Source: a phage
Strand: one strand, 5' to 3'
Sequence record: PZ534515.1
DNA length: 64,000 bases
In this document: positions 3,377 to 51,660 of the stretch, in pieces
Numbering within the stretch: the stretch's first letter is position 1
How the letters are laid out: each line of letters begins with the position of its first letter
Notes under the pieces: generated by a model
The model's input: only the letters and a program-made list of their open reading frames with translations
The model's database searches: none
What the model was told of the DNA's origin: nothing
Program-made: the position numbers and the translations under genes

Positions 3377-3863
3377 AGGATTTGGCAATTGTCCCACCTA
3401 TGGACATTGGGTATCTTTATGTGGGGAAGTTGACCCCACTAAACATTTTGGTTTTGTCTATTTAGTACACTGTAAGAAAACCGGACAATATTATATCGGA
3501 AAGAAACAGCTTAATAGCGTGACCAAAAGAAAAGTTGCTGGCAAGACTCGGAAGAAGGTAGTCACTAAGGAGAGTGATTGGATGACTTATGAGACTTCTT
3601 CTGAGTATATTAAAAAAGATATCGAGAGCTTTGGAAAGGAATTTTTTGACTTTTACATTATCCAAACCTACTACACGAAAGGTGGCCTAGTTTATGGTGA
3701 AGCAAACCTCCAACATAAATTCGATGTAATGACAAAAAGGATTGACTCTAAGCTCAGACTCTTCTACAATGCCAATATTGCAGCAATTAAGTTTATTACT
3801 AAAGAAACTTATGAAGATGCTGAAAAAAGAATCCATAAGGTAATGAAAGCAAACTGTGCTTGA
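3366..3863 (+). CDS. GIY-YIG domain nuclease
   Basis: FVYLVHCKKTGQYYIGKK fits the GIY-(10-11 aa)-YIG signature. Confidence 0.5.
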   Translation: MKIKGFGNCPTYGHWVSLCGEVDPTKHFGFVYLVHCKKTGQYYIGKKQLNSVTKRKVAGKTRKKVVTKESDWMTYETSSEYIKKDIESFGKEFFDFYIIQTYYTKGGLVYGEANLQHKFDVMTKRIDSKLRLFYNANIAAIKFITKETYEDAEKRIHKVMKANCA

Positions 3864-3884
3864 TAACTGTTGAGAGAGAATAAA

Positions 3885-4133
3885 ATGTTTAACAAAAGTA
3901 AAGCTGTGAGTCATGTAGCAAAAGTTGACAGCAAGATTGAAGAACTTGAGCGCATTCTTGCAAATGCCAGAGAGTCAATAATTAAAGAAGTTGAAGCTGT
4001 TGAATCTCAAATGCAGCACCTAATGCTTAAACGTCAAGAGCTACGTGAGCATCTAGAATATATTGAAACGCGAGAGCTAAAGGTTAACAAATATTTTAAG
4101 GAGTCCGAATGTTTAACTCAAGAGAATCAGTAA
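3885..4133 (+). CDS. hypothetical protein (coiled-coil)
   Basis: ATG preceded by GAGAGAG. The track start at 3870 is a TTG. Confidence 0.45.
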   Translation: MFNKSKAVSHVAKVDSKIEELERILANARESIIKEVEAVESQMQHLMLKRQELREHLEYIETRELKVNKYFKESECLTQENQ

Positions 4134-41961: not shown

Positions 41962-42188
41962 TTTTCAGTTCTCCTGCGATTTATGATTTTGCTGCAATAG
42001 AGAAACGAAGTAAACTCACTGGAAGAAACCATCAAGTGCTGTTCACTAGATTGAGCCATTGCCCTGAAATACATTCCAGTCAAAGCATCGTAGTGACTAT
42101 TCTTTCCAATTGAGGTTATATAGCCATGACTCTTTGCAGTTTGATATAAATCTATAATATCTGCGATTTCTAATTGGGAACTACACAT
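41955..42188 (-). CDS. hypothetical protein
   Basis: Start overlaps the upstream stop. Confidence 0.4.
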   Translation of the reverse strand: MCSSQLEIADIIDLYQTAKSHGYITSIGKNSHYDALTGMYFRAMAQSSEQHLMVSSSEFTSFLYCSKIINRRRTEKC

Positions 42189-42352
42189 AGATAATCCTCT
42201 TGTCTTCTGTAATTTTGAAAGAACAGGTACAGACCAATTTCAGAGGATGAATAGTAGAGTAACTCTACCCTTTTTGATTCCTTACAGTGATTGGTATTTT
42301 TACCTTTCTTCGGGTTGTTTGATTTTCTCATTAAGTCTCCTTTGTAGAACAA
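42170..42352 (-). CDS. hypothetical small basic protein
   Basis: First gene of the minus-strand block after the divergent region; exactly 60 aa. Confidence 0.3.
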   Translation of the reverse strand: MFYKGDLMRKSNNPKKGKNTNHCKESKRVELLYYSSSEIGLYLFFQNYRRQEDYLCVVPN

Positions 42353-42512
42353 GGCAGACCTACAGCTTTAAGTAAGATGGTACAGTAATCCATACAACAA
42401 GTCAAGAACTATTGCAAGTTAAAAAAGTTGTTGACAAAGGACTTGACAAGGTGTAGTATTATAAATACTTAGAAGATAACTTAAAAGGTTCCTCTAAAAA
42501 GGCTATTTAAAC

Positions 42513-42533
42513 AGATATCTTTCTGGATATCTA
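42513..42533 (+). promoter_or_regulatory. palindrome agatatc-N6-gatatct in divergent control region (operator candidate)
   Basis: 7-bp perfect inverted repeat between the minus-strand and plus-strand gene blocks. Confidence 0.35.
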
Positions 42534-42580
42534 TCTTTTATCTTAAAAGCCTTTTAAGAGGTCTTATAAGAGGCATACCA

Positions 42581-42952
42581 ATGAAAAACAGAACAAACAA
42601 AGGCCAGTTTAAAAAAGGCCAGTCTGGAAACCCATCTGGAAGACCAAAAGGCTCTCGTAACAAAAGCTCACTCGTAAAAGCTCAACTGACCATTGATAAT
42701 TCTGCTGAGTTCGCTGCAAAGCTGTTTGAGGCGATTGTTACAAGGGACGCTGCTAAGCTTGCAGAGTTCGGGTTAAACACAGATGACGTAACCATCAAGA
42801 GCATGATTGAGGTCGGTAAAACTATCTTTACTCACTCAGCAGGTGAGATGAAAGCACTTGCAGCAGACACTAAGAAGACTCCTGATAATGGTGGTCAACA
42901 ACAGACAGATAACAAACCAACGTTCTCTGCTGTAGCGACTCTCAAAAAATAA
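42581..42952 (+). CDS. hypothetical protein with basic N-terminal GQSGNPSGRPKGS motif
   Basis: ATG start. The motif may correspond to a phage DUF family; I cannot name it reliably. Confidence 0.45.
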   Translation: MKNRTNKGQFKKGQSGNPSGRPKGSRNKSSLVKAQLTIDNSAEFAAKLFEAIVTRDAAKLAEFGLNTDDVTIKSMIEVGKTIFTHSAGEMKALAADTKKTPDNGGQQQTDNKPTFSAVATLKK

Positions 42953-42964
42953 TTTTAAAAGGTG

Positions 42965-42996
42965 TTGACAGACTCTACAAAGTTGCTCTAAAGTCT
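42965..42996 (+). promoter_or_regulatory. putative promoter overlapped by a 9-bp perfect inverted repeat (TGACAGACT-N17-AGTCTGTCA)
   Basis: TTGACA at 42965; palindrome arms at 42966-42974 and 42992-43000. Upstream of the vWA-domain gene. Confidence 0.4.
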
Positions 42997-43033
42997 GTCA
43001 CATCAAACAACAAATGAGAGAAGCGAGTAAAAT

Positions 43034-44449
43034 ATGAGCGAGTTATTTAAACATGCGCACCTTCATGCAGGTCGAACTGAAAATGGTGCTGTAAACCATA
43101 CTTCATCAATGTCTGCTCTGGTAGACTTCTACAAAGCCGCTGGCTCAAGCCGTAGCAATGTAGAAATCTTACCAGACCTGTTCTACAAAGCTTTGCGTGA
43201 GGATGTTGATGTTGCAGTTCGTATTTTACTGCATATGCGAGATGTGCGAGAAGGTATGGGTGAGCGTAAAGCTTTCCGAACTGTTTTACTTCAAGCAATT
43301 GAAGATAAAGTTTTAGAACCTACACAGGTTCTCCGCATTATGGATAAGATTGCAGAACTTGGTCGTTTTGATGACTTCAAAATCTTTGTAGGTACTCGTT
43401 TTGAGACAGACGCCTTCAAACATTTAGAAGCAGCATTACTAGACCCTGCAACAGCAGGTTTAGCAGCTAAGTGGTTACCACGAGTAAAACCACGCCACAA
43501 ACAGTTTGTAAAACGTTTCTGTAAGTTTGCAAACTTAAGCGAGAAAGAGTACCGCACACTGTTATCTGCACTGTCTGATACGGTTGAGCAAAAAATCTCT
43601 GCTAATGAGTTTGGTAAGATTGACTACAGCAAGATTCCTTCACTCGCTGCTGCACGTTACCAAAAGCTCTTTAACCGTAAAGATGGGGAACGTTACAAAG
43701 CTTACATCGAGTCACTATCAAAGGGTGAGGCTAAGATTAACGCTGGTGCTGTTTACCCATATGATGTGATTAAATCTATCAAGCATGGTAATGCAGATGT
43801 TGCTAATGAGCAGTGGAAAGCACTACCAAACTGGATGGCAGAAGGTGAGAACATCTTGTGTATGACTGATGTTTCAAGCTCAATGTCTTGGGTGAATCTT
43901 GGTTCAATCACTGCCCTTGATATTGGTGTATCACTTGCCTTGTATGTAGCAGAACGCAATACAGGCTGCTTTAAGAATGAGTTAATGGTTTATTCAACAA
44001 ACCCTCACTTCATTGAACTGAGTGGCGATTTACAAAACCGTCATCGTCAGGTGATGCGTCATGTTGAATATGGTTCAACTAACTTACAAGCAGCTTTTGA
44101 CCGTATTCTTGAAATAGGTAAGAGAAACAACTTGACTCAGAAAGATATGCCAAGTAAGCTTATCATCTTCTCCGATATGGAGTTCAATCAGGTTGATGGA
44201 GCTAACGGTCGTACAAACTTTGAAGCAATTCAGAGTAAGTGCAAAAAAGCTGGATACGAAATGCCACAACTGGTATTCTGGTACTTAGCAAACCGTAATG
44301 GTACTTGCGAAGTATCTGTTAAGGATAATGGTGTAGCAATGGTATCAGGGTTCTCTCCAGCCACTTTAAAAGCTCTGCTTGGTGGTGAGAAGTTTGACCC
44401 AATCAGCGTAATGCTCAAAGCAGTAATGATTGACCGTTACATCTGGTAA
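43034..44449 (+). CDS. vWA-domain protein (MIDAS motif), possibly TROVE/Ro60-like
   Basis: ILCMTDVSSSMS fits the vWA MIDAS D-x-S-x-S motif. Alpha-helical N-terminal half. Located immediately upstream of the tRNA bank. Confidence 0.45.
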   Translation: MSELFKHAHLHAGRTENGAVNHTSSMSALVDFYKAAGSSRSNVEILPDLFYKALREDVDVAVRILLHMRDVREGMGERKAFRTVLLQAIEDKVLEPTQVLRIMDKIAELGRFDDFKIFVGTRFETDAFKHLEAALLDPATAGLAAKWLPRVKPRHKQFVKRFCKFANLSEKEYRTLLSALSDTVEQKISANEFGKIDYSKIPSLAAARYQKLFNRKDGERYKAYIESLSKGEAKINAGAVYPYDVIKSIKHGNADVANEQWKALPNWMAEGENILCMTDVSSSMSWVNLGSITALDIGVSLALYVAERNTGCFKNELMVYSTNPHFIELSGDLQNRHRQVMRHVEYGSTNLQAAFDRILEIGKRNNLTQKDMPSKLIIFSDMEFNQVDGANGRTNFEAIQSKCKKAGYEMPQLVFWYLANRNGTCEVSVKDNGVAMVSGFSPATLKALLGGEKFDPISVMLKAVMIDRYIW

Positions 44450-44467
44450 AAAGTTTCAAAAAGGGTA

Positions 44468-44496
44468 TTGACAATGTGTTTGATACCCTTTAATAT
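44468..44496 (+). promoter_or_regulatory. sigma70-like promoter (TTGACA-17 bp-TAATAT) flanked by an inverted repeat
   Basis: Hexamers read from sequence; aagggtat / ataccctt inverted repeat brackets the -35 and spacer. Upstream of the first tRNA. Confidence 0.55.
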
Positions 44497-44559
44497 GTTC
44501 TACATAGAAACGAAATGAGAGCTTTTCTAAGATACTGAAAAAATATTTTAAAAAAGTTC

Positions 44560-44589
44560 TTGACAACCACTAAAAAATAATGTTAAAGT
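44560..44589 (+). promoter_or_regulatory. second putative promoter upstream of the tRNA bank (TTGACA-17 bp-TAAAGT)
   Basis: Weaker -10; accact / agtggt inverted repeat. Confidence 0.35.
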
Positions 44590-44615
44590 GGTTACATAGA
44601 GTTTGAAAAATTTAT

Positions 44616-44692
44616 CTCTGTTTAGCTCAGCTTGGTAGAGCGTTCCGTTTGGGGCGGTAAGGCCGGAGGTTCAAGTCCTCCAACAGAGACCA
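44616..44692 (+). tRNA. tRNA-Pro (anticodon TGG), CCA encoded
   Basis: Hand-folded: acceptor ctctgtt/aacagag, D-arm gctcagcttggtagagc, anticodon loop ttTGGgg, T-arm ggagg-ttcaagt-cctcc. Confidence 0.7.
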
Positions 44693-44699
44693 AATTAAT

Positions 44700-44777
44700 G
44701 TTCCAGTAGACAAAATGGTAAAGTCACCACTCTTTCAAAGTGGATATTTGAGGGTTCAAATCCCTTCTGGAACGCCA
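44700..44777 (+). tRNA. tRNA-Glu (anticodon TTC), CCA encoded
   Basis: Acceptor gttccag/ctggaac, anticodon stem ccact/agtgg with loop ctTTCaa, T-loop ttcaaat. Confidence 0.7.
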
Positions 44778-44868
44778 GTTTTGACAGAAGACCAATTACA
44801 GCAAACTTAATCTTATTCATCTGAAGATAAATCGGACAAAGAAGAGATTTGGTCTGGTCATTAAGAAT

Positions 44869-44945
44869 TGCGGGTATAGAGAAAGGGCGTCTCACATGTC
44901 TCATTAGCATGGTATCGGCAGGTTCGACTCCTGCACCCGCCTCCA
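44869..44945 (+). tRNA. tRNA with anticodon CAT (Met/fMet or Ile-lysidine); 1:72 position unpaired
   Basis: T-arm gcagg-ttcgact-cctgc; acceptor tgcgggt/acccgcc with first-pair mismatch; anticodon loop ctCATta. Atypical features, so lower confidence. Confidence 0.45.
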
Positions 44946-45022
44946 ATTTTGCAGAAGACCGTATTCAGCAACAAACTACTTTTTGCGGATAAAAGAAAAA
45001 ACACGGTCTGGCAATGTATTAA

Positions 45023-45099
45023 GGTTAGGAAGCACATAAGGTATGTGCGGTCGCCTGTTAAGCGAATGGCACAGGGTTCGAATCCCTGACTAACCGCCA
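45023..45099 (+). tRNA. tRNA-Asn (anticodon GTT), CCA encoded
   Basis: D-arm gcac-ataaggtat-gtgc, anticodon loop ctGTTaa, T-arm caggg-ttcgaat-ccctg. Confidence 0.65.
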
Positions 45100-45170
45100 A
45101 ATTTAGGGGAGAAGCGATTGCTCACCGATTTGTAAGGTGCAAGTCCTTAGCCTGAATAGAATAATAAAAT

Positions 45171-45258
45171 GTGTCGTTATCCCGTAGATGGTAGCGGTGG
45201 GGACTGTAAATCCCTTGTCATTGAGACTCGGTAGGTTCGACTCCTACACGGCACACCA
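45171..45258 (+). tRNA. tRNA-Tyr (anticodon GTA), long variable arm, CCA encoded
   Basis: About 85 nt. Acceptor gtgtcgt/acggcac (one GU), anticodon loop ctGTAaa, T-arm gtagg-ttcgact-cctac. Confidence 0.65.
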
Positions 45259-45264
45259 AATAAA

Positions 45265-45342
45265 GGTTATGTAGTTTAATCTGGTTAAAATACTCCCCTG
45301 TCACGGGAGATGATGAGGGTTCAAATCCCTTCGTAACCGCCA
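45265..45342 (+). tRNA. tRNA-Asp (anticodon GTC), CCA encoded
   Basis: Acceptor ggttatg/cgtaacc, anticodon stem ctccc/gggag with loop ctGTCac, T-loop ttcaaat. Confidence 0.7.
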
Positions 45343-45799
45343 AATTATAATAAGTATTTCAAGATGATGTTTTGAGAGGGCTATTTATCCCCTCCCTTAA
45401 AGAGTTCTTACGAGTATTCTTTAAAGGAGCAGAAGACCAAATACAGCAAGTTACTTAAAATTTCAAGCCAATTTAATTTTGAAAAATTTAAAACTTGGTC
45501 TGGCTCAACAAATTTACAGAAGACCGTTTACAGCAAAACTTAAACAATCTATTTCTCCGGTAAAGAAAAGGCGAAGGTTCGATTCCTTCACTCGGCAGAT
45601 GTCGAGTTGGTGTAATGGTAGCACTTAAGATGATAAACAACGGTCTGGTAATTATCTTTGCAGTAGCTTATGTGGCTAATTATGTCGTCCCATGAGTGCC
45701 GATGAATTTCCTTAGCATGATTCTAGATTAGCTTAATAGGAAATGACTCTACAGACCCTTTAGCAAGGTCTGCGTAGGTTACTGCAAAGGTAATTTAAT

Positions 45800-45875
45800 G
45801 GAAGTGTAGCAGAATGGTGATGCGGCAGACTTTTAATCTGACAGGCGATGGGTTCGAATCCCTCCACTTCTACCA
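45800..45875 (+). tRNA. tRNA-Lys (anticodon TTT), CCA encoded
   Basis: Acceptor ggaagtg/cacttct, D-arm gca-gaatggtga-tgc, anticodon loop ctTTTaa. Weak T-stem (ggg/ccc) shared with the paralogous tRNA-Lys(CTT). Confidence 0.6.
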
Positions 45876-45879
45876 ATAT

Positions 45880-45956
45880 GGTTCAGTCGCAGATAAGGTA
45901 ATGCAGGGGTCTCATAAGCCCTATGAATGTGGGTTCGATTCCCATCTGAACCTCCA
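45880..45956 (+). tRNA. tRNA with anticodon CAT (Met-type), CCA encoded
   Basis: Acceptor ggttcag/ctgaacc, anticodon stem ggggt/gccct with loop ctCATaa, T-arm gtggg-ttcgatt-cccat. Confidence 0.65.
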
Positions 45957-45957
45957 A

Positions 45958-46033
45958 GCTGGTATAGTTAAGAAGGTTATAACACTCCCCTGATAAGGGA
46001 ATATCGGTGGTTCGATTCCACCTACCAGTACCA
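45958..46033 (+). tRNA. tRNA-Ile (anticodon GAT), CCA encoded
   Basis: D-arm gtta-agaaggtta-taac, anticodon loop ctGATaa, T-arm ggtgg-ttcgatt-ccacc. Confidence 0.65.
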
Positions 46034-46048
46034 ATTTCAATAAAGTTG

Positions 46049-46077
46049 TTGACATTAACATGTGACCACTTTATAGT
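46049..46077 (+). promoter_or_regulatory. internal sigma70-like promoter in the tRNA bank (TTGACA-17 bp-TATAGT)
   Basis: Hexamers and spacing read directly. Confidence 0.5.
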
Positions 46078-46278
46078 AACCTTAGTTTTCGTTGCGTAGC
46101 GTCTATTTTGCAAATTTAAAATAAATGCAAACGACAATGTTTTTCTGGCAGTAGCTTGATAGGCTAAACACCAGTGAGGTCTTCCAATCCCTCATCAAAG
46201 AATTTGGCGTACTCGCCCACGGTATGATTAATAAGGTGGGCATCTTTAAGGGCTTTCTAAGAGAGTCTTTAAAGATTA

Positions 46279-46355
46279 ATGCACCCTTAGTTCAATTGGA
46301 TAGAGCAACGGTCTTCTAAATCGTTAGTTACAGGTTCGAATCCTGTAGGGTGTGC
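46279..46355 (+). tRNA. tRNA-Arg (anticodon TCT), CCA encoded
   Basis: D-arm gttc-aattggata-gagc, anticodon stem acggt/atcgt with loop ctTCTaa, T-arm acagg-ttcgaat-cctgt. Confidence 0.7.
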
Positions 46356-46499
46356 CAAATAGTTAGCAGATTGCTTAGACGACCTTATCGGGTCTCCGTG
46401 TAAGGAGGTGGTCTGTATCTCATGTTTTCCAGAACATGTAAATAATCTGAGAAGGGGCTTTACAGTGTTGCGAAAATACGGTAAGCTTCGAATTATAGT

Positions 46500-46582
46500 G
46501 TGGGACGATGTTAAGACTCTAAGGCATGAGCAACGGCCTCCAAAACCGTTTCAAAGGGGTTCAACTCCTCCGTCCCATGCCA
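46500..46582 (+). tRNA. tRNA-like gene, probable tRNA-Trp (anticodon CCA) with an enlarged D region
   Basis: Acceptor gtgggac/gtcccat, anticodon arm aacgg(c)-ctCCAaa-(a)ccgtt, T-loop ttcaact. About 7 extra nt between acceptor and anticodon arm; needs a tRNA scanner. Confidence 0.4.
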
Positions 46583-46595
46583 AAGTCTTATTAGG

Positions 46596-46683
46596 GGTAG
46601 GTAGCGGCTAATGGCAGCCAAACAGTCTTGAAAACTGTTGCCACTGTAGAGATACGGTGAGGGTTCGACTCCTTTACTTACCG
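46596..46683 (+). tRNA. tRNA-Ser (anticodon TGA), long variable arm, CCA not encoded
   Basis: 88 nt. Acceptor ggtaggt/acttacc, anticodon loop ctTGAaa, T-arm gaggg-ttcgact-ccttt. Confidence 0.6.
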
Positions 46684-46837
46684 CCTAATAAGATTTAAAG
46701 CCAAGCTTCATTCGGATGTTGCTTTGGTATCCCTCGTGTATTGTCGTACACACTGATAAAGCACCTAGTAGGTGTCACGGAGAAGAGATAATATCAAGCT
46801 CTCCAAAGGTTCTAGTCACCGGATTAAACAAGACTAT

Positions 46838-46862
46838 GCAAAGACCAATTTAGGTCTTTTTA
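46838..46862 (+). terminator. rho-independent terminator inside the tRNA bank
   Basis: aagacc-aattt-aggtctt hairpin followed by TTTT. Confidence 0.5.
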
Positions 46863-46940
46863 GAGGGCTTCTAAGGTTATTACAGCTTGTTGTGGAACCT
46901 TGTTGCTTAGGTTCTTAGAAGTTCTCTAAAAAGATTTAAT

Positions 46941-47017
46941 GCACCTATAGCCCAACTGGTAGAGGCAGCAGACTTAGAATCTGCTCAGTGTGAGTTCGAA
47001 TCTCTCTAGGTGTACCA
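46941..47017 (+). tRNA. tRNA with anticodon TAG (Leu), short variable arm, CCA encoded
   Basis: Acceptor gcaccta/taggtgt, anticodon stem gcaga/tctgc with loop ctTAGaa, T-loop ttcgaat. Variable loop is only about 5 nt. Confidence 0.55.
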
Positions 47018-47024
47018 AATTAAT

Positions 47025-47100
47025 GCAGGTGTAGCAAAATGGTTATGCGGCTGACTCTTAATCAGTAAGACGATGGGTTCAATTCCCTCCACCTGTACCA
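47025..47100 (+). tRNA. tRNA-Lys (anticodon CTT), CCA encoded
   Basis: Close paralog of tRNA-Lys(TTT): acceptor gcaggtg/cacctgt, anticodon loop ctCTTaa. Confidence 0.6.
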
Positions 47101-47106
47101 AACATT

Positions 47107-47182
47107 GGGGTCATAGTTTATATGGTTAAAATTCGAGTTTTGCAAACTTGGGAACTGAGTTCAATTCTCAGTGACTCCACCA
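47107..47182 (+). tRNA. tRNA-Ala (anticodon TGC), CCA encoded
   Basis: Acceptor ggggtca/tgactcc, anticodon loop ttTGCaa, T-arm ctgag-ttcaatt-ctcag. Confidence 0.65.
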
Positions 47183-47188
47183 ATTAGT

Positions 47189-47263
47189 GCATCCATAGTT
47201 TAAACGGGAAAATTACAGTCTTCCAAACTGAGGTTGAGGGTTCGATTCCCTCTGGATGCTCCA
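47189..47263 (+). tRNA. tRNA-Gly (anticodon TCC), CCA encoded
   Basis: Perfect acceptor gcatcca/tggatgc, anticodon loop ctTCCaa, T-arm gaggg-ttcgatt-ccctc. Confidence 0.7.
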
Positions 47264-47269
47264 AACAAT

Positions 47270-47346
47270 GCTGCTTTCGTATAATTGGCTATTACACATC
47301 CCTTGTAAGGATGGAGATGCGGGTTCAAGTCCTGTGAGCAGCACCA
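47270..47346 (+). tRNA. tRNA-Thr (anticodon TGT), CCA encoded
   Basis: Acceptor gctgctt/gagcagc, anticodon stem catcc/ggatg with loop ctTGTaa, T-loop ttcaagt. Confidence 0.7.
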
Positions 47347-47441
47347 ATTCAGAGGTCAAGTGAAAGACCGCTGGTGTCAACTGAAGACCGTAACAAATTC
47401 CACGGAGTTGAGTTAGCGGCACAACTTCAGACCTCTTTCAT

Positions 47442-47516
47442 ACTCGCTTAGTTTATATGGTAAAACATCACCCTTACAAGATGAAGAAAAAGGTTCAAGT
47501 CCTTTAGTGAGTACCA
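47442..47516 (+). tRNA. tRNA-Val (anticodon TAC), CCA encoded
   Basis: Acceptor actcgct/agtgagt, anticodon loop ctTACaa, T-arm aaagg-ttcaagt-ccttt. Confidence 0.6.
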
Positions 47517-47517
47517 T

Positions 47518-47595
47518 GTTCCAGTATCCCAATTGGCAGAGGATGCAAGCTCAAACCTTGTACTAGTGACGGTTCGAATCCGTCTTGGAACACCA
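47518..47595 (+). tRNA. tRNA with anticodon CAA (Leu), short variable arm, CCA encoded
   Basis: Acceptor gttccag/ttggaac, anticodon stem gcaag/cttgt with loop ctCAAac, T-arm gacgg-ttcgaat-ccgtc. Confidence 0.55.
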
Positions 47596-47600
47596 ATTTT

Positions 47601-47676
47601 GCAGGATTAGTTCAAATGGATAGAGCAACAGTCTACGAAGCTGTTAATAGGGGTTCGAATCCCTTATCCTGCACCA
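47601..47676 (+). tRNA. tRNA-Arg (anticodon ACG), CCA encoded
   Basis: Perfect acceptor gcaggat/atcctgc, D-arm gttc-aaatggata-gagc, anticodon loop ctACGaa. Confidence 0.7.
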
Positions 47677-47695
47677 ATTTAAAGAGGCTATTTAG

Positions 47696-48253
47696 ATGAG
47701 ATATTTGAAGTATGCTTCATGGATTTTCCTAGCTTTGTTAGACCCATTGGCAGCAACCTTAGCAGTTATCTTAGCACCTTTTGTAGTTCCATTCTATAGT
47801 GAGAAGAAAGGACATCTACCTTTTGGATTCAGATGGATGGAGACATATGACAACCCCATTGATGGTGATGAAGGTCACATTAAACGATGGGCTAAGATTA
47901 GAAAGATTGGTAAGCTTGGTGTCTATTTGCAGAGAGTTGGATGGCTCTGGAGAAACAAAGCTTATAACTTCTCTTACCATGTGTTAGGAAGAGATATAAA
48001 AGATGTTACTAAGTGGAAAGGTAATATCAACGTAAGCTCTGACCCTGAAGATAATCAGACAGGTTATCTCCTAATGTGGAACAGTAATGCTTGGGGATTA
48101 TTCGCTTTTATCCCATCAATTAAAGTCTTTGGTAAACAATTCTACTGGAGAATTTATGTTGGGTGGAAACTAAAAAGTGTTGTCCCAGAAGAAAGAGCAT
48201 TCTCAAGGGAAAGAGTTATGTTGGCATTCTTTATTCATCCACTGAGAAAGTAA
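47696..48253 (+). CDS. hypothetical membrane protein embedded in the tRNA bank
   Basis: ATG with AAGAGG 8 nt upstream. N-terminal TM helix (WIFLALLDPLAATLAVILAPFVV), Trp-rich. Flanked by tRNAs on both sides. Confidence 0.5.
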   Translation: MRYLKYASWIFLALLDPLAATLAVILAPFVVPFYSEKKGHLPFGFRWMETYDNPIDGDEGHIKRWAKIRKIGKLGVYLQRVGWLWRNKAYNFSYHVLGRDIKDVTKWKGNINVSSDPEDNQTGYLLMWNSNAWGLFAFIPSIKVFGKQFYWRIYVGWKLKSVVPEERAFSRERVMLAFFIHPLRK

Positions 48254-48261
48254 AGATTTAA

Positions 48262-48337
48262 AGGGGATTAGTTTACAAGGTTAAAACCTCGGTCTTTGAA
48301 ATCGAAGAAGTTGGTTCAATTCCAACATCCCCCGCCA
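48262..48337 (+). tRNA. tRNA-Gln (anticodon TTG), CCA encoded
   Basis: Anticodon stem tcggt/atcga with loop ctTTGaa, T-arm gttgg-ttcaatt-ccaac. Confidence 0.6.
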
Positions 48338-48339
48338 AT

Positions 48340-48418
48340 GCTCCATTACTCCAATTGGCAGAGAGGCCAGACTTAAAATCTGTGTTATGTATCGGTTCGA
48401 ATCCGATATGGAGTACCA
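48340..48418 (+). tRNA. tRNA with anticodon TAA (Leu), variable region about 8 nt, CCA encoded
   Basis: Acceptor gctccat/atggagt, anticodon loop ctTAAaa, perfect T-arm atcgg-ttcgaat-ccgat. Confidence 0.55.
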
Positions 48419-48423
48419 AATTT

Positions 48424-48499
48424 AGCGGTATAGCATAACTGTCAATGCAGCAGTCTCTGAAGCTGTCCTATTAAGGTTCAAATCCTTATGCCGCTGCCA
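48424..48499 (+). tRNA. tRNA-Gln (anticodon CTG), CCA encoded
   Basis: Acceptor agcggta/tgccgct, anticodon loop ctCTGaa, T-arm taagg-ttcaaat-cctta. Confidence 0.65.
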
Positions 48500-48522
48500 C
48501 TTCTAAGGATTCTTACGAGAGT

Positions 48523-48598
48523 CTTTAAATGTGGCCTTATCATAAATGGTAATGACCCATGCTGTGAACATGGTCTATACGGGTTCAAATCCCGTAGG
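48523..48598 (+). tRNA. tRNA-His (anticodon GTG), CCA encoded
   Basis: Anticodon stem ccatg/catgg with loop ctGTGaa, T-arm acggg-ttcaaat-cccgt. Confidence 0.65.
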
Positions 48599-48603
48599 TC
48601 ACC

Positions 48604-48679
48604 CCAATTTATAGTCCAAGTAGCTTATATGGTTAAAGCGCGTGTCTGAAAAACATGAGAAGAGGGTTCAAATCCCACT
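48604..48679 (+). tRNA. tRNA-Phe (anticodon GAA), CCA encoded
   Basis: Acceptor agtccaa/ctggact, anticodon loop ctGAAaa, T-loop ttcaaat. Confidence 0.6.
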
Positions 48680-48695
48680 GGACTACCAATTTCAA

Positions 48696-49439
48696 AGGTG
48701 CTTAATGAAAGAGATGACAGAACAAGGTAAGGAGATTTTTAATCTCTTAAAAACCGGTAGAGGGTTTTCTAATCCCCTTATTACTGGTGCAGCAGTTCTA
48801 GGTGGAACCGTAGCTGCCTCTACATCACTTGTAAGCTCTATTAGCTCTGTAACAGACCCTGCAATGAAGGATAAGCTCATTGCTGCTGGACTTACAACAG
48901 TTCTGCTTAATAGCTTTACAACGAGTCTGACAAGCACTACATCAACTACTAAGACATTGACAGATTATGGTCAAAAATCTATTGATGAGTTTTCCTCACG
49001 TATGCAGGTAGCAAAAGGCTACTCCAATGTTATGGGTGCAGCAGGAGAGCAAGTTGGTTGTACACCATTTAGTGGTATTATGGGTGTTGCTACAGAGTAT
49101 GGTCAAAAAGCTATGGATACAATTAACAGCACACTAGATGGCGTTAATGATGTATTAAGTGACTTACAGGATGCTATTGATAAAGGGCTTGATACTATTT
49201 CTGATTTAGCTAACCAAGCTGTTAGTAAGATTAATGAAGGTATCTCGAAGATTACAGCTTATGCAGATGAAGTTGTGCAGATGATTGAAGAAGAAGCTGC
49301 CCTTATTGCAGAGTACCTTAAAACGAATATCAATGGGTTCTTAGCAGGTATCTTACCAGACTGGTTTGACGATGCTTGTAAAACTGGTGTGATTGACACT
49401 ATTGCAACACCAGAAATGAAGAACGCATTACAGAAATAA
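48696..49439 (+). CDS. hypothetical protein (Ser/Thr/Ala-rich, helical) between tRNA genes
   Basis: In-frame ATG just after tRNA-Phe with AAAGG upstream; the track start at 48642 would overlap the tRNA. Confidence 0.5.
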   Translation, partial: RCLMKEMTEQGKEIFNLLKTGRGFSNPLITGAAVLGGTVAASTSLVSSISSVTDPAMKDKLIAAGLTTVLLNSFTTSLTSTTSTTKTLTDYGQKSIDEFSSRMQVAKGYSNVMGAAGEQVGCTPFSGIMGVATEYGQKAMDTINSTLDGVNDVLSDLQDAIDKGLDTISDLANQAVSKINEGISKITAYADEVVQMIEEEAALIAEYLKTNINGFLAGILPDWFDDACKTGVIDTIATPEMKNALQK

Positions 49440-49440
49440 T

Positions 49441-49533
49441 GGAAGATTAACCCTAAAAGGTAAGGGAGCAGTTTGCTAAACTGCCAGTAGCTGAGAAATC
49501 GGTGTACCAGTTCAAGTCTGGTATCTTCCTCCA
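49441..49533 (+). tRNA. tRNA-Ser (anticodon GCT), long variable arm, CCA encoded
   Basis: Acceptor ggaagat/atcttcc, anticodon stem gcagt/actgc with loop ttGCTaa, T-arm accag-ttcaagt-ctggt. About 90 nt. Confidence 0.65.
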
Positions 49534-49537
49534 ATTT

Positions 49538-49613
49538 GAATCCGTGACAGAAATGGATATGTGCCTGTCTGCAAAACAGGTTTATAAGGGTTCGAGTCCC
49601 TTCGGATTCTCCA
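49538..49613 (+). tRNA. tRNA-Cys (anticodon GCA), CCA encoded
   Basis: Perfect acceptor gaatccg/cggattc, anticodon stem cctgt/acagg with loop ctGCAaa, T-loop ttcgagt. Confidence 0.7.
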
Positions 49614-49654
49614 AGTTATTTTACTCTCTCTCAATTAAAATAATAATAATGCCC

Positions 49655-49712
49655 TGCTATAAGTATTCTTCTTTTCGCTACCGAAGAGTATTTTTAGACA
49701 GGGCTTTTTTTA
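49655..49712 (+). terminator. rho-independent terminator closing the tRNA bank
   Basis: gccctg ... cagggc stem followed by TTTTTTT. Confidence 0.55.
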
Positions 49713-49836
49713 CAGAGTTATACTTTATAAGAAGCCTTATACAGTATGTCTCTGACGTACATTGTGGTTTCTCCTTGACGGTCTCTGTACCGTCTTTTTT
49801 AAGGGGAAACATGGTTAATTATTTGGAGAAAACATA

Positions 49837-50037
49837 ATGAGCGAGACCGTTTATAAAGAACTTTATGAAGCTAATAAGAAGCTAGAATTTATGCAGAATA
49901 CTATCATGGCAATTGCAGACAGATTGTCTGTAGCAACAGGTATTGATATCAAAGAAGCATCTATGGATGCACTTCTTGATGCTGTTGATGCAAAGTTCGA
50001 AGTTAAGAAAGAAGAGACTGCTACAGACTCTGAATAA
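49837..50037 (+). CDS. hypothetical small protein upstream of terminase (possible small terminase subunit or partner)
   Basis: 66 aa, acidic, predicted helical. Function inferred from position only. Confidence 0.3.
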   Translation: MSETVYKELYEANKKLEFMQNTIMAIADRLSVATGIDIKEASMDALLDAVDAKFEVKKEETATDSE

Positions 50038-50058
50038 TTCTATTTGCGGAGGTGCTTA

Positions 50059-51660
50059 ATGGACTTAAATGCTGTTAAGCAGAAGCGAGTGGAAGATGTT
50101 AGGAAAGTCCTAGCTGGAGAGTTGGGGCTTTCTGATGAAGTAAAAGAAATTATCAAATCATTCGGTAAAGACCCCTCTAAATTCCTTCCAACTCAAATTC
50201 TGACTTTATTAAGATACACACCAGACCAAGTTAGACTTATCTTCAAATTGATGACTGATAAGAACTATGTAGCCCCTCAGCCGGGTTCTCAAGAGGTCTT
50301 TTTAAATACTAATGCTGATTTGGTTCTCTATGGTGGTGCTGCTGGTGCTGGTAAAACCGCTGCATTGTTAATGGACTCTTTAAGATTTATTGAAGACCCT
50401 AACTATAACGCTGTATATTTCCGTCGAAATACAACACAGTTACAAGGTGGTTTATGGCCTGCTGCAAAGAAACTATTTGGTAAGTTTGGTGGGGTTCCTC
50501 ACGAGCAGAAGATGACTATCACGTTCCCTTCTGGGGCAACTATCAAGTTCACCTACCTAGAACTTGAAAAGCACGCTGAAGGTCATCAGGGTATTGAATA
50601 CTCGGCTATTTACTTTGACGAAGGTACACACTTCTCTGCTTCACAGATTTCATACCTACAGACTCGTCTACGTTCTGGGGCTGAAGGCGATTCATACATG
50701 AAGATTTCCATGAACCCAGACAGAGACCATTTTATTTATGATTGGGTAGAACCATTCTTAGATGAAGAAGGATATCCAGACCCTGAGAAGTGTGGTCGTA
50801 TTCGTTGGTATGTTATGAATGATGGTGTGATGGTCTCTGATTGGGAGAGAGACAAGATTCTTGAGATGTTCCCTCTTGAGATTCCTCAGACATACACCTT
50901 CATCTCTGGTACGATTGATGATAACCCAATTCTTGACTTCTTAGAACCTAAATACCGTGGTAAGTTGGAAAACAACACACCTGTAAACGTTGCAAGACTT
51001 CGTTTCGGTAACTGGAAGGCTCGTGCAGAAGGTTCAAACTATTGGCAAAGACAATGGTGTGAGATTGTTGATTCACTCCCAGAAGATGTGTTTGATGTCA
51101 GAGCATGGGACTTAGCAGCGACTTTACCATCTGAAATTAACCCTAACCCAGACTGGACAGCGGGTGTTAAGATGGGTAAATCTAAAAAAGACGGTTGCTA
51201 TTATATCATTGATGTAGTAAGATTTAGAGATAGACCCTCTGGAGTCGAAACACAAATTAATTTGACTGCTGAAAGTGACGGTAAGCGAACTGGTATTTTT
51301 ATCCCTCAAGACCCAGGCGCTGCTGGTAAATCCTATGCAACATCCCTCATCAGGAAACTTGCCGAGAAAGGTTATCGCGCAAGAGCTAAACCAACAAATA
51401 AAGATAAAGTTACCCGCTTTGCGGGATTTTCTGCTGCTTCTGAAGCTGGACTTGTAAAAGTCTTGAGAGGCAGTTGGAACGAAGCTTACTTTCAAGAACT
51501 TGAAGGTTTTTGTGGTGACGGTAAAACTAAAGATGACCAAGTGGATGCTACCAGTGATGCTTTCAACAGTCTTAACGAAGTTAAATTATTCAAGCCACCA
51601 TCAATGGGTGCTCACACAGACTTAGTGAGAGGAAACCCATATGAGGGGCTTAGACGTTGA
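50059..51660 (+). CDS. terminase large subunit
   Basis: Walker A VLYGGAAGAGKTAAL, Walker B-like IYFDEGTHF, and a C-terminal nuclease region with conserved acidic residues. GGAGG upstream of the ATG. Confidence 0.75.
   Translation: MDLNAVKQKRVEDVRKVLAGELGLSDEVKEIIKSFGKDPSKFLPTQILTLLRYTPDQVRLIFKLMTDKNYVAPQPGSQEVFLNTNADLVLYGGAAGAGKTAALLMDSLRFIEDPNYNAVYFRRNTTQLQGGLWPAAKKLFGKFGGVPHEQKMTITFPSGATIKFTYLELEKHAEGHQGIEYSAIYFDEGTHFSASQISYLQTRLRSGAEGDSYMKISMNPDRDHFIYDWVEPFLDEEGYPDPEKCGRIRWYVMNDGVMVSDWERDKILEMFPLEIPQTYTFISGTIDDNPILDFLEPKYRGKLENNTPVNVARLRFGNWKARAEGSNYWQRQWCEIVDSLPEDVFDVRAWDLAATLPSEINPNPDWTAGVKMGKSKKDGCYYIIDVVRFRDRPSGVETQINLTAESDGKRTGIFIPQDPGAAGKSYATSLIRKLAEKGYRARAKPTNKDKVTRFAGFSAASEAGLVKVLRGSWNEAYFQELEGFCGDGKTKDDQVDATSDAFNSLNEVKLFKPPSMGAHTDLVRGNPYEGLRR

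Follow-up and report, generated by a model that had tools for sequence, protein, structure and literature searches.

We analysed a stretch of phage DNA of 64,000 nucleotides (nt) (sequence record PZ534515.1; the whole stretch is referred to as the window), in which a gene of the DUF2828/DUF7788 family precedes a bank of transfer RNA (tRNA) genes. We found that genes of this family are accompanied by small structured RNAs in which a closing stem adjoins a single-stranded CAGCAA motif, and that this CAGCAA-stem RNA family is real, covarying and strand-specifically linked to DUF2828 genes. The protein itself is predicted to have a Ro60-like fold. The explanation that we favor, and consider somewhat probable, is that it is a divergent Ro60-type protein that works as a ribonucleoprotein with the adjacent CAGCAA-stem RNAs, i.e. 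a second Ro60-like family. That the protein is Ro-like can already be read from existing annotation: in public records the gene is called hypothetical, 'vWFA protein' or 'DUF2828 family protein', RefSeq and PHROG 850 both use 'RNA-binding protein', and the SEA-PHAGES annotators have named the mycobacteriophage homologues 'Ro-like RNA binding protein'. Our search of the literature on the DUF2828 phage family returned genome announcements only and no study of the family. What appears to be new is the cognate RNA family, its breadth, the YrlA-like long form in the tRNA bank and the resemblance to the Class I RNAs of Dictyostelium; the small RNA element is apparently one that has not previously been described.

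The RNA family was examined in 90 loci encoding homologues 38-63% identical to the protein, drawn from T4-like, rV5-like, Felix-like and other contigs (labels such as L010 denote these numbered loci and contigs of relatives). A simple scanner covering up to 500 nt from the gene detected an element on the gene strand in 66/90 loci and on the other strand in 9/90, with 67 distinct helix sequences. A control that did not presuppose pairing agreed with this: the CAGCAA hexamer occurred 141 times on the gene strand of the gene flanks and 26 times on the other strand, whereas its other permutations occurred 31 times on average, and it was bracketed by a helix in 72% of cases, those permutations in 34% on average. 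When 33 elements were aligned, the 7-bp helix was paired in 100% of cells and six of its seven pairs had changed on both sides, while the second pair was G-C in all 33. The consensus that emerges is N-U-W-CAGCAA following the 5' stem strand, with ends (A)AAG...CUG(U), and it occurs in a short form of 50-65 nt with an A/U-rich insert and a long form of 100-180 nt, often with a permuted tRNA mimic. A reading of TTGCTG/CAGCAA as a MotA box or promoter was rejected on account of the strand specificity and the constant helix bracketing.

From this alignment we built a covariance model of the element (R1), which gave 87 matches at E<=0.1, all of them on the gene strand, in 59 of 86 DUF2828 loci; many of these matches had not been used in training. 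Listeria phage LMTA-34, Staphylococcus phage 6ec, Campylobacter phage Los1 and Mycobacterium phage Whirlwind encode proteins that are 29-36% identical, and in these phages the gene is directly flanked by untrained tandem copies (E 3e-8 to 1e-6). R1 detected no element in six true Ro60 loci. Of the 59 element-bearing loci 33 have no nearby tRNA, which shows that the element tracks the gene and not the tRNAs. The linkage was also approached from the opposite side, by scanning 2.9 million IMG/VR viral contigs with the pattern AAGG-N4-TTACAGCAA-N25-50-CCTG, which makes no demand on pairing. There were 122 matches, 60 of which were fully complementary at the four free positions (~2% would be expected by chance). 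In 24 of these 60, the stored stretch encoded DUF2828, which in every case lay on the strand of the element and for the most part no more than 660 nt away, whereas DUF2828 accompanied none of 50 non-complementary matches.

Two element-bearing contigs labelled as giant-virus metagenome-assembled genomes (L135 and L170) were considered as a bridge to eukaryotic viruses and rejected, as the stored stretches hold no DUF2828. L135 (47% GC) carries three tandem CAGCAA-stem elements with differing helices (AGGGACC, AGAGTC) at ~3800-4044 on the minus strand; its genes are phage-like (Big_2, ResIII, Nmad2) and no DUF2828 lies within the 11 kb of it that were covered. In two marine contigs, NsiR1-like matches of 37.7-38.6 bits (gathering score 39) directly follow CAGCAA-stem elements (L058 4924-4978 and L074 4928-4982).

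In the window, a repeat is present four times in the tRNA bank, in each case on the + strand, as structured segments that are not tRNAs (E1-E4, Table 1). The signature CAGAAGACC...GGTCTGG occurs four times on the + strand within 44785-45648, and these counts were unmatched by any shuffle. In all four copies an AG-N5/N5-CU helix closes the element, the (U)UACAGCAA motif is single-stranded, the insert varies and one G bulges out on the 3' side; the helix is conserved as AGACCRN/NYGGTCT, while the outer 4-bp stems vary compensatorily from copy to copy and are followed by an AGA bulge. The closing helices were seen in both the minimum free energy and the centroid folds. Each element takes up a slot of the size of a tRNA, with 3-8 nt separating it from its neighbours (that of E1 has tRNA-Glu on one side and tRNA-Met on the other), and the four lie 333-1203 nt 3' of the stop codon of the gene, on the same strand. 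When R1 was run over the 64-kb window only E1-E3 and E4, on which the model had not been trained, stood out, and no copy was found upstream of the window's gene. A tRNA-like module is present in E4 only (45573-45624), where it comprises a V hairpin, a T arm (GAAGG-TTCGATT-CCTTC), a loop-closed acceptor (ACTCGGC/GTCGAGT) and a D arm (GTGT-AATGGTA-GCAC); E1-E3 have no tRNA arms.

Table 1. Features of the DUF2828 gene, its product and the neighbouring RNA genes in the window
Feature	Position	Strand	Details
Promoter, sigma-70-like, TTGACA-18-TAAAGT within a perfect 9-bp inverted repeat	42965..43000	+	34 nt 5' of the ATG
DUF2828+DUF7788 gene, predicted Ro60-like fold	43034..44449	+	ATG start, 471 aa
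All-helical N-terminal half, ~aa 1-265, superposable on the Ro60 HEAT-repeat ring	43034..43828	+	predicted structure
C-terminal vWA domain, ~aa 270-455 (DUF7788, weak VWA_2)	43841..44398	+	aligned with the Ro60 vWA domain by hhalign
MIDAS D279-x-S281-x-S283 within LCMTDVSSSMS	43868..43882	+	with T349 (44078-44080) and D381 (44174-44176)
Two promoter-like sites, each with its own inverted repeat	44460..44596	+	between the gene's stop codon and tRNA-Pro
tRNA bank, 26 tRNA genes, all + strand	44616..49613	+	first is tRNA-Pro
E1	44782..44861	+	outer stem TGAC/GTCA, AGA bulge, helix AGACCAA/TTGGTCT, single-stranded UUACAGCAA, variable loop, G bulge; 47.7 bits (R1)
E2	44949..45015	+	outer stem TTGC/GCAA, helix AGACCGT/ACGGTCT, AUUCAGCAA; 46 bits (R1)
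E3	45427..45507	+	outer stem GAGC/GCTC, helix AGACCAA/TTGGTCT, AUACAGCAA; 46 bits (R1)
E4	45514..45652	+	outer stem TTAC/GTAA, same closing stem and UUACAGCAA, encloses permuted tRNA-like module; 20.1 bits, E 0.013 (R1, untrained)

An initial annotation of this DNA, made from the sequence alone, had placed at 43034-44449 an open reading frame for a protein of 471 amino acids (aa) with a helical N-terminal half and a C-terminal D-x-S-x-S motif, and we recovered each of these. Pfam assigns DUF2828 (PF11443) to the N-terminal half of the protein (104 bits, gathering score 29, E 1e-29) and DUF7788 (PF25043) to the C-terminal half (144 bits, gathering score 27.1, E 5e-42), and both domains were matched by 36/36 relatives. 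The match of the protein to VWA_2 was below the Pfam threshold, vWA_Ro60 was matched weakly by 4/36 relatives, NCBIfam assigned the protein to no family, and sequence searches of the PDB (phmmer with the protein, hmmsearch with the family profile) were empty. An AlphaFold2 model built from 36 homologues was confident (pLDDT 85.9, pTM 0.86), all-helical over residues ~28-263 and alpha/beta thereafter, with the closed HEAT-like helical ring capped by a C-terminal vWA domain that is expected of Ro60. When the model was compared with the PDB by Foldseek, the best 12 matches were all Ro60/TROVE proteins, aligned over the full length (E 3e-8 to 6e-6), among them Xenopus Ro60, human Ro60, Deinococcus Rsr and the Ro60 of Thermus phage phiLo; structure prediction, one of the checks proposed in the initial annotation, returned a Ro60-type ring. 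A reference alignment of true Ro60 was made from six phage Ro60 proteins obtained by tblastn together with human Ro60, checked against the PDB, and hhalign matched the family to it with 84% probability (E 7e-6), although only aa 222-448 were aligned (with Ro60 300-535), i.e. the final ring helices and the vWA domain. Among the relatives T15, G18, R72, G74, G76 and K146 of the N-terminal half are invariant; in the vWA domain D279, S281, S283, T349 and D381 are invariant in alignments down to 30% identity, so the metal ion-dependent adhesion site, or MIDAS, is complete and under selection. On the evidence of the model, the protein resembles Ro60 in fold yet forms a separate family by sequence.

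The long form of the element provides a further likeness to the Ro60 system. In YrlA RNAs, T, loop-closed acceptor and D arms resembling those of tRNA, with an optional V arm, lie inside a stem in which the 5' and 3' ends pair (Chen et al. 2014, PMC4201824), and permuted tRNA-like modules occur in E4 and in elements of L010, L012, L049 and L090, with arm sequences that differ in each lineage. RNAalifold applied to eight long elements gave the T arm only, MAFFT having misaligned the inserts, and an explicit arm descriptor was used instead. The descriptor detected 23 modules on the gene strand and 2 on the other, and it re-detected the Rfam YrlA sites in true Ro60 loci. The Rfam YrlA model (RF02553) matched long forms in L010 (40.9 bits, E 1e-5, over the full model), L012 (31.4 bits) and L090 (26.7 bits). 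As a positive control, the same model gave sub-threshold matches of 27.8-36.6 bits (E 1e-4 to 5e-2) just upstream of true phage Ro60 genes; several of these genes have tRNAs around them. The long forms therefore score as well as the YrlA matches beside true phage Ro60, although all are below the gathering score of 69 bits.

Comparison with the Ro60/Rsr system and its YrlA and YrlB RNAs (PMC4201824) shows several parallels: the DUF2828 protein has a predicted helical-repeat ring with a vWA/MIDAS domain, the small RNAs are on the same strand as the gene and within a few kb of it, the elements are modular, with a closing stem and motif combined with a putative effector module, in some cases a tRNA mimic, and RtcB and RNA repair genes neighbour DUF2828 relatives. 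The systems differ in that the domains are DUF2828/DUF7788 and not TROVE, with no sequence signal for the ring, and in that UACAGCAA beside an AG.../...CU helix stands where Y RNAs have GNCGAA; moreover, unlike Y RNAs, the DUF2828 elements are mostly short (50-65 nt) with an unstructured A/U-rich insert, are often in tandem and in some cases are in the gene's own untranslated regions (UTRs). A phage precedent exists in phiLo, whose Ro60 binds adjacent Y-like RNAs as well as the host PNPase in complexes that slow RNA decay (PMC12135203). Both phage systems combine a Ro60-fold protein of ~460 aa (predicted in our case) with adjoining Y-like RNAs (Yrl1 and Yrl2 in phiLo; PDB 9KOP, 9L5Y), whereas phiLo Ro60 is a recognised TROVE protein with RNAs that carry a CGAA motif and a function that has been tested.

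In the mechanism that we infer, the protein would be a ring of helical repeats capped by the vWA/MIDAS domain, belonging to a DUF2828/DUF7788 family of phages, giant viruses and eukaryotes. Each element RNA has a 7-bp helix that always starts A-U, G-C, then three nucleotides, CAGCAA, the variable insert and a 3' end CU-G, and the docking site would be the AG.../...CU helix with the UACAGCAA motif, standing where canonical Y RNAs have their GNCGAA helix. The insert, whether A/U-rich loop or tRNA mimic, could then serve as an effector module that gates the ring or tethers it to tRNA-handling enzymes or exonucleases. In Felix O1-type phages E1-E4 would presumably be cut from the same precursor as the tRNAs, and the tRNA mimic of E4 could bring the particle to tRNA-handling enzymes. 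During infection, tRNAs and other structured RNAs might thereby be surveyed, protected or turned over. Such a role fits the presence of tRNAs in the flank at 32 of 86 loci (37%; 199 of these 202 tRNAs are on the gene strand) together with neighbouring repair genes, which in the relatives include RtcB 'tRNA splicing ligase', an RNA ligase, PNKP, RlaP and the peptidyl-tRNA hydrolase PTH2. The neighbourhood of the relatives points to RNA repair and nucleotide salvage. In many relatives a copy of the element adjoins the Shine-Dalgarno sequence or sits 9-28 nt past the stop codon, and in L011 its 3' strand overlaps the ATG of the gene; the copies at the Shine-Dalgarno sequence and start codon suggest translational autorepression by the protein. 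Relatives with a copy in the 5' UTR include L013, L043, L047 and L079. RNA binding, processing, autoregulation and the physiological role are all put forward here by analogy and are to be read as putative.

A number of results weigh against a Ro60-type ribonucleoprotein. The Ro60/TROVE-like architecture proposed in the initial annotation was borne out by the predicted fold, by Foldseek and by the hhalign match of the vWA domain, but in the profile comparison proposed there DUF2828 was above threshold and VWA_2 weak, while Pfam TROVE (PF05731) gave no match in the protein or in 36 relatives at E<=10. When the N-terminal halves alone were aligned with Ro60 by hhalign there was no signal (E 0.72), which means that homology of the ring depends on predicted structure; nor did the alignment become any longer once four far relatives had been included in the profile. 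The Y-RNA-like candidates that had been suggested in the bank fared similarly, as E4 has a YrlA-type design, but no canonical Y RNA is present. Searches with Rfam found no Y_RNA or YrlA match at E<=1 over 42000-50500 or at E<=10 in a 156-nt stretch around E4, and the YrlA motif GNCGAAN0-1G is absent, UACAGCAA taking its place in each of E1-E4. The seed elements of R1 had themselves been selected by pairing, an effect mitigated by the untrained matches and the reciprocal scan, and no element was found at E<=0.1 in 27 of the 86 homologous loci. The copies in UTRs equally fit a purely cis-regulatory role exerted via another factor. The initial annotation had also named the opposite outcome, a conventional vWA protein with no ring-fold similarity and no RNA association; what we found instead was a predicted ring and an association with RNA that we infer from the linked elements.

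Apart from YrlA, the only Rfam family to match the phage elements recurrently was Dicty Class I (RF01414), at 12.8-30.7 bits (12.8-21.4 for the copies in the window, with E2 at 21.4), all below the gathering score of 41.5. Class I RNAs, reported to be unique to Dictyostelia, are about 60 nt long (within ~42-65 nt), with a terminal compensatory stem of 6 bp that has an invariant 5' G-C, ends AAG...CUGU, and an 11-nt motif, CCUUACAGCAA, adjoining the 5' stem strand (Kjellin et al. 2021, PMC7919456). The phage elements share with them the terminal compensatory stem (6-7 bp) with its invariant G-C, the AAG...CUG(U) ends, a similar length, an A-rich stretch ahead of the 3' strand, clustered genes and, in part, the motif, in that many copies have a single-stranded UUACAGCAA immediately 3' of the stem's 5' strand. 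The Class I sequences from the supplement of that paper align with the phage elements except for one extra linker nucleotide: many phage copies read UUACAGCAA, with a spacing to the conserved G that is one nucleotide shorter than in Class I. The window copies, at 60-75 nt, read AAG...CUGG and have an additional outer stem. Besides the shorter linker and the scores below gathering, the phage elements differ in having no DUSE promoter, which is eukaryotic. The known direct binder of Class I RNA in Dictyostelium is the RRM protein Rnp1A (PMC7919456).

DUF2828 has been reported in mimivirus-like sequences, and the papers that name it are mostly plant studies. In Pfam, DUF2828 is a family of eukaryotes and viruses. 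We searched the literature on DUF2828, on DDB_G0281243 and on the Avesson 2011 pull-down and found no domain information; DDB_G0281243 is an uncharacterised protein from the DdR-21 pull-down and an unconfirmed candidate for membership of DUF2828. We raise only tentatively, as a possibility that we think will rather prove wrong than right, that the phage CAGCAA-stem RNAs and the dictyostelid Class I RNAs are the same kind of RNA and that DUF2828 proteins are their conserved Ro60-like partner. If true, this would amount to a second Ro60/Y-RNA-type ribonucleoprotein system common to viruses and eukaryotes, and Class I RNAs would gain a protein partner and an evolutionary origin.

The alternative that survives best accepts the Ro60-like fold but treats the CAGCAA-stem elements as cis signals (for processing, mRNA stabilisation or translational control as an operator) that are read by a host factor or another phage protein and carried along with the transcription unit. 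The many copies in the 5' UTR at the Shine-Dalgarno sequence or shortly past the stop codon, the overlap with the start codon in L011 and the precedent of Rnp1A all favor it. However, the linkage persists across unrelated contexts and virus families while the neighbours change, the copies in Felix O1-type and KVP40-type phages are separated from the gene and lie among tRNAs, and a simple operator would have no need of the Y-RNA-like modular long forms. We regard this alternative as having an appreciable but minor chance of being correct.

It is considerably less likely that the protein is a conventional vWA/MIDAS adaptor, such as a cofactor of assembly or of a chaperone or a protein associated with packaging, that plays no part in RNA biology and lies at the tRNA bank by coincidence. 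Several GenBank records do call it a vWFA protein, its MIDAS is intact, as in the vWA/MIDAS cofactors of MoxR-type AAA+ chaperones, and in Felix O1-like and Staphylococcus 6ec-like phages the gene has a terS-like gene (DUF5681) on one side and the terminase/portal block on the other. This synteny, discussed below, could indicate a late or packaging-related role, which is a further point against an RNA-centred function. Unlike the genes of such cofactors, though, the DUF2828 gene has no MoxR-type AAA+ gene adjoining it in the window or in the relatives' loci, and the N-terminal half fits the Ro60 ring and not a chaperone adaptor. The full-length fold match to Ro60 goes beyond what vWA domains would give, a conserved structured RNA is linked to the gene strand-specifically, and tRNA and RNA-repair genes are common neighbours.

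Two other explanations are very improbable. The protein might be a true Ro60/Rsr orthologue that binds canonical YrlA through the GNCGAA helix, as in the Ro60 of mycobacteriophages and Thermus phage; the fold match, the YrlA-like tRNA mimicry of E4 and a RefSeq product name identical to that of true phage Ro60 fit with this, but the lack of a TROVE match, the separate set of phage genes retrieved when human Ro60 is used in tblastn, the lack of YrlA or Y_RNA matches and of GNCGAA in the window, and the absence of CAGCAA elements from the six true Ro60 loci do not. Equally disfavored, in this case by the covariation, is the idea that E1-E4 are decayed tRNA genes or recombination scars without function: their tRNA-sized slots and tRNA-like spacing, the T and D arms of E4 and a separate pseudo-tRNA at 46502-46580 would be explained, but not the lack of tRNA arms in E1-E3, the conservation of stem and motif with compensatory changes in phages of different bacterial phyla, or the retention of the region in more than 220 Felixounavirus genomes.

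A DUF2828 ribonucleoprotein of Ro60 type would have several implications. Ro60-Y RNA particles are a classic but poorly understood case of RNA surveillance, and the evidence suggests a second phage version that is far more widespread, with homologues in no fewer than 710 sequenced phages and thousands more in metagenomes. A large family of domains of unknown function would acquire a candidate function, as would the unannotated but conserved 'spacers' of phage tRNA banks. The family would also be connected with the supply of tRNAs and with RNA repair, both at the centre of current work on how phages counter tRNA-cleaving immunity. With its simple, mutable docking motif and a minimal RNA of 60 nt the system should be experimentally tractable, and the very close likeness of the RNA signature to Class I makes a 20-year-old question testable, namely what binds these abundant RNAs and where they come from.

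The part of the window around the gene shows 97-99% identity to Felix O1-type myoviruses (genus Felixounavirus) that infect E. coli and Salmonella, with Escherichia phage JH2 as the best match at 98.7%. The promoter overlapped by a perfect 9-bp palindrome that the initial annotation had noted upstream of the gene was found (Table 1): its hexamers (42965-42994) agree with the consensus at 10/12 positions, and the arms of the inverted repeat are TGACAGACT (42966-42974) and AGTCTGTCA (42992-43000). The promoter scan is weak on its own, as it gave 20 promoter-like sites in the region compared with 16.7 +/- 3.6 in shuffles. The first tRNA had been placed within 170 bp of the gene, and tRNA-Pro does begin 166 nt after the stop codon; the promoter-like sites ahead of the bank, at 44468 and 44560, are probable start points for its transcription. 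All three promoter-like sites (42965-43000, 44460-44496 and 44560-44596) combine TTGACA with TAAAGT or TAATAT in inverted repeats of 7-12 bp, and the sequences of the repeats differ, which means that they are not one common operator. We take this promoter-in-inverted-repeat design to be reminiscent of the 'promoter-early stem-loop' cassettes of T4-type phages.

The gene upstream of DUF2828 in the window (42581-42952) encodes a DUF5681 protein with an N-terminal GNPSGRPKG motif, and its place was compared with that in L008, L009, L015 and L220. In L015 it directly precedes the gene for the terminase large subunit, and in Staphylococcus phage 6ec the corresponding position is taken by an annotated small terminase, so that the order terS-like gene, DUF2828, tRNAs, terL is repeated in unrelated phages. 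Further neighbours of the relatives were an HD phosphohydrolase, NAPRTase with PRPP synthetase, and a Band-7 protein; the loci surveyed for neighbours were L219 (Listeria phage LMTA-34), L015, L017, L013, L010/L012 and L218. The tRNA banks of two relatives contain tmRNA-like Rfam matches (E 5e-9 and 5e-7; L010 9213-9288 and L012 10940-11015).

The bank of the window has other features besides E1-E4. Two open reading frames lie within it (47696-48253 and 48642-49439), one of which belongs to phrog_2143 (unknown function) and the other to phrog_2114, with weak tape-measure-like and 'GTP-binding domain' matches. The segment 46502-46580 is tRNA-like, a paralogue of tRNA-Arg(TCT) with 71% identity to 46303-46344; it matches Rfam tRNA-Sec at 23 bits, has an over-long anticodon loop and no ARAGORN call, and is either a pseudo-tRNA or an unusual tRNA. 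The 147-nt spacer 45653-45799 has a very stable fold (-51.6 kcal/mol) with a long closing stem; its 20-nt box GCAGTAGCTTnnnnGGCTAA recurs at 46148-46167 in a second spacer, the spacers with this box forming a second type of non-tRNA RNA in the bank.

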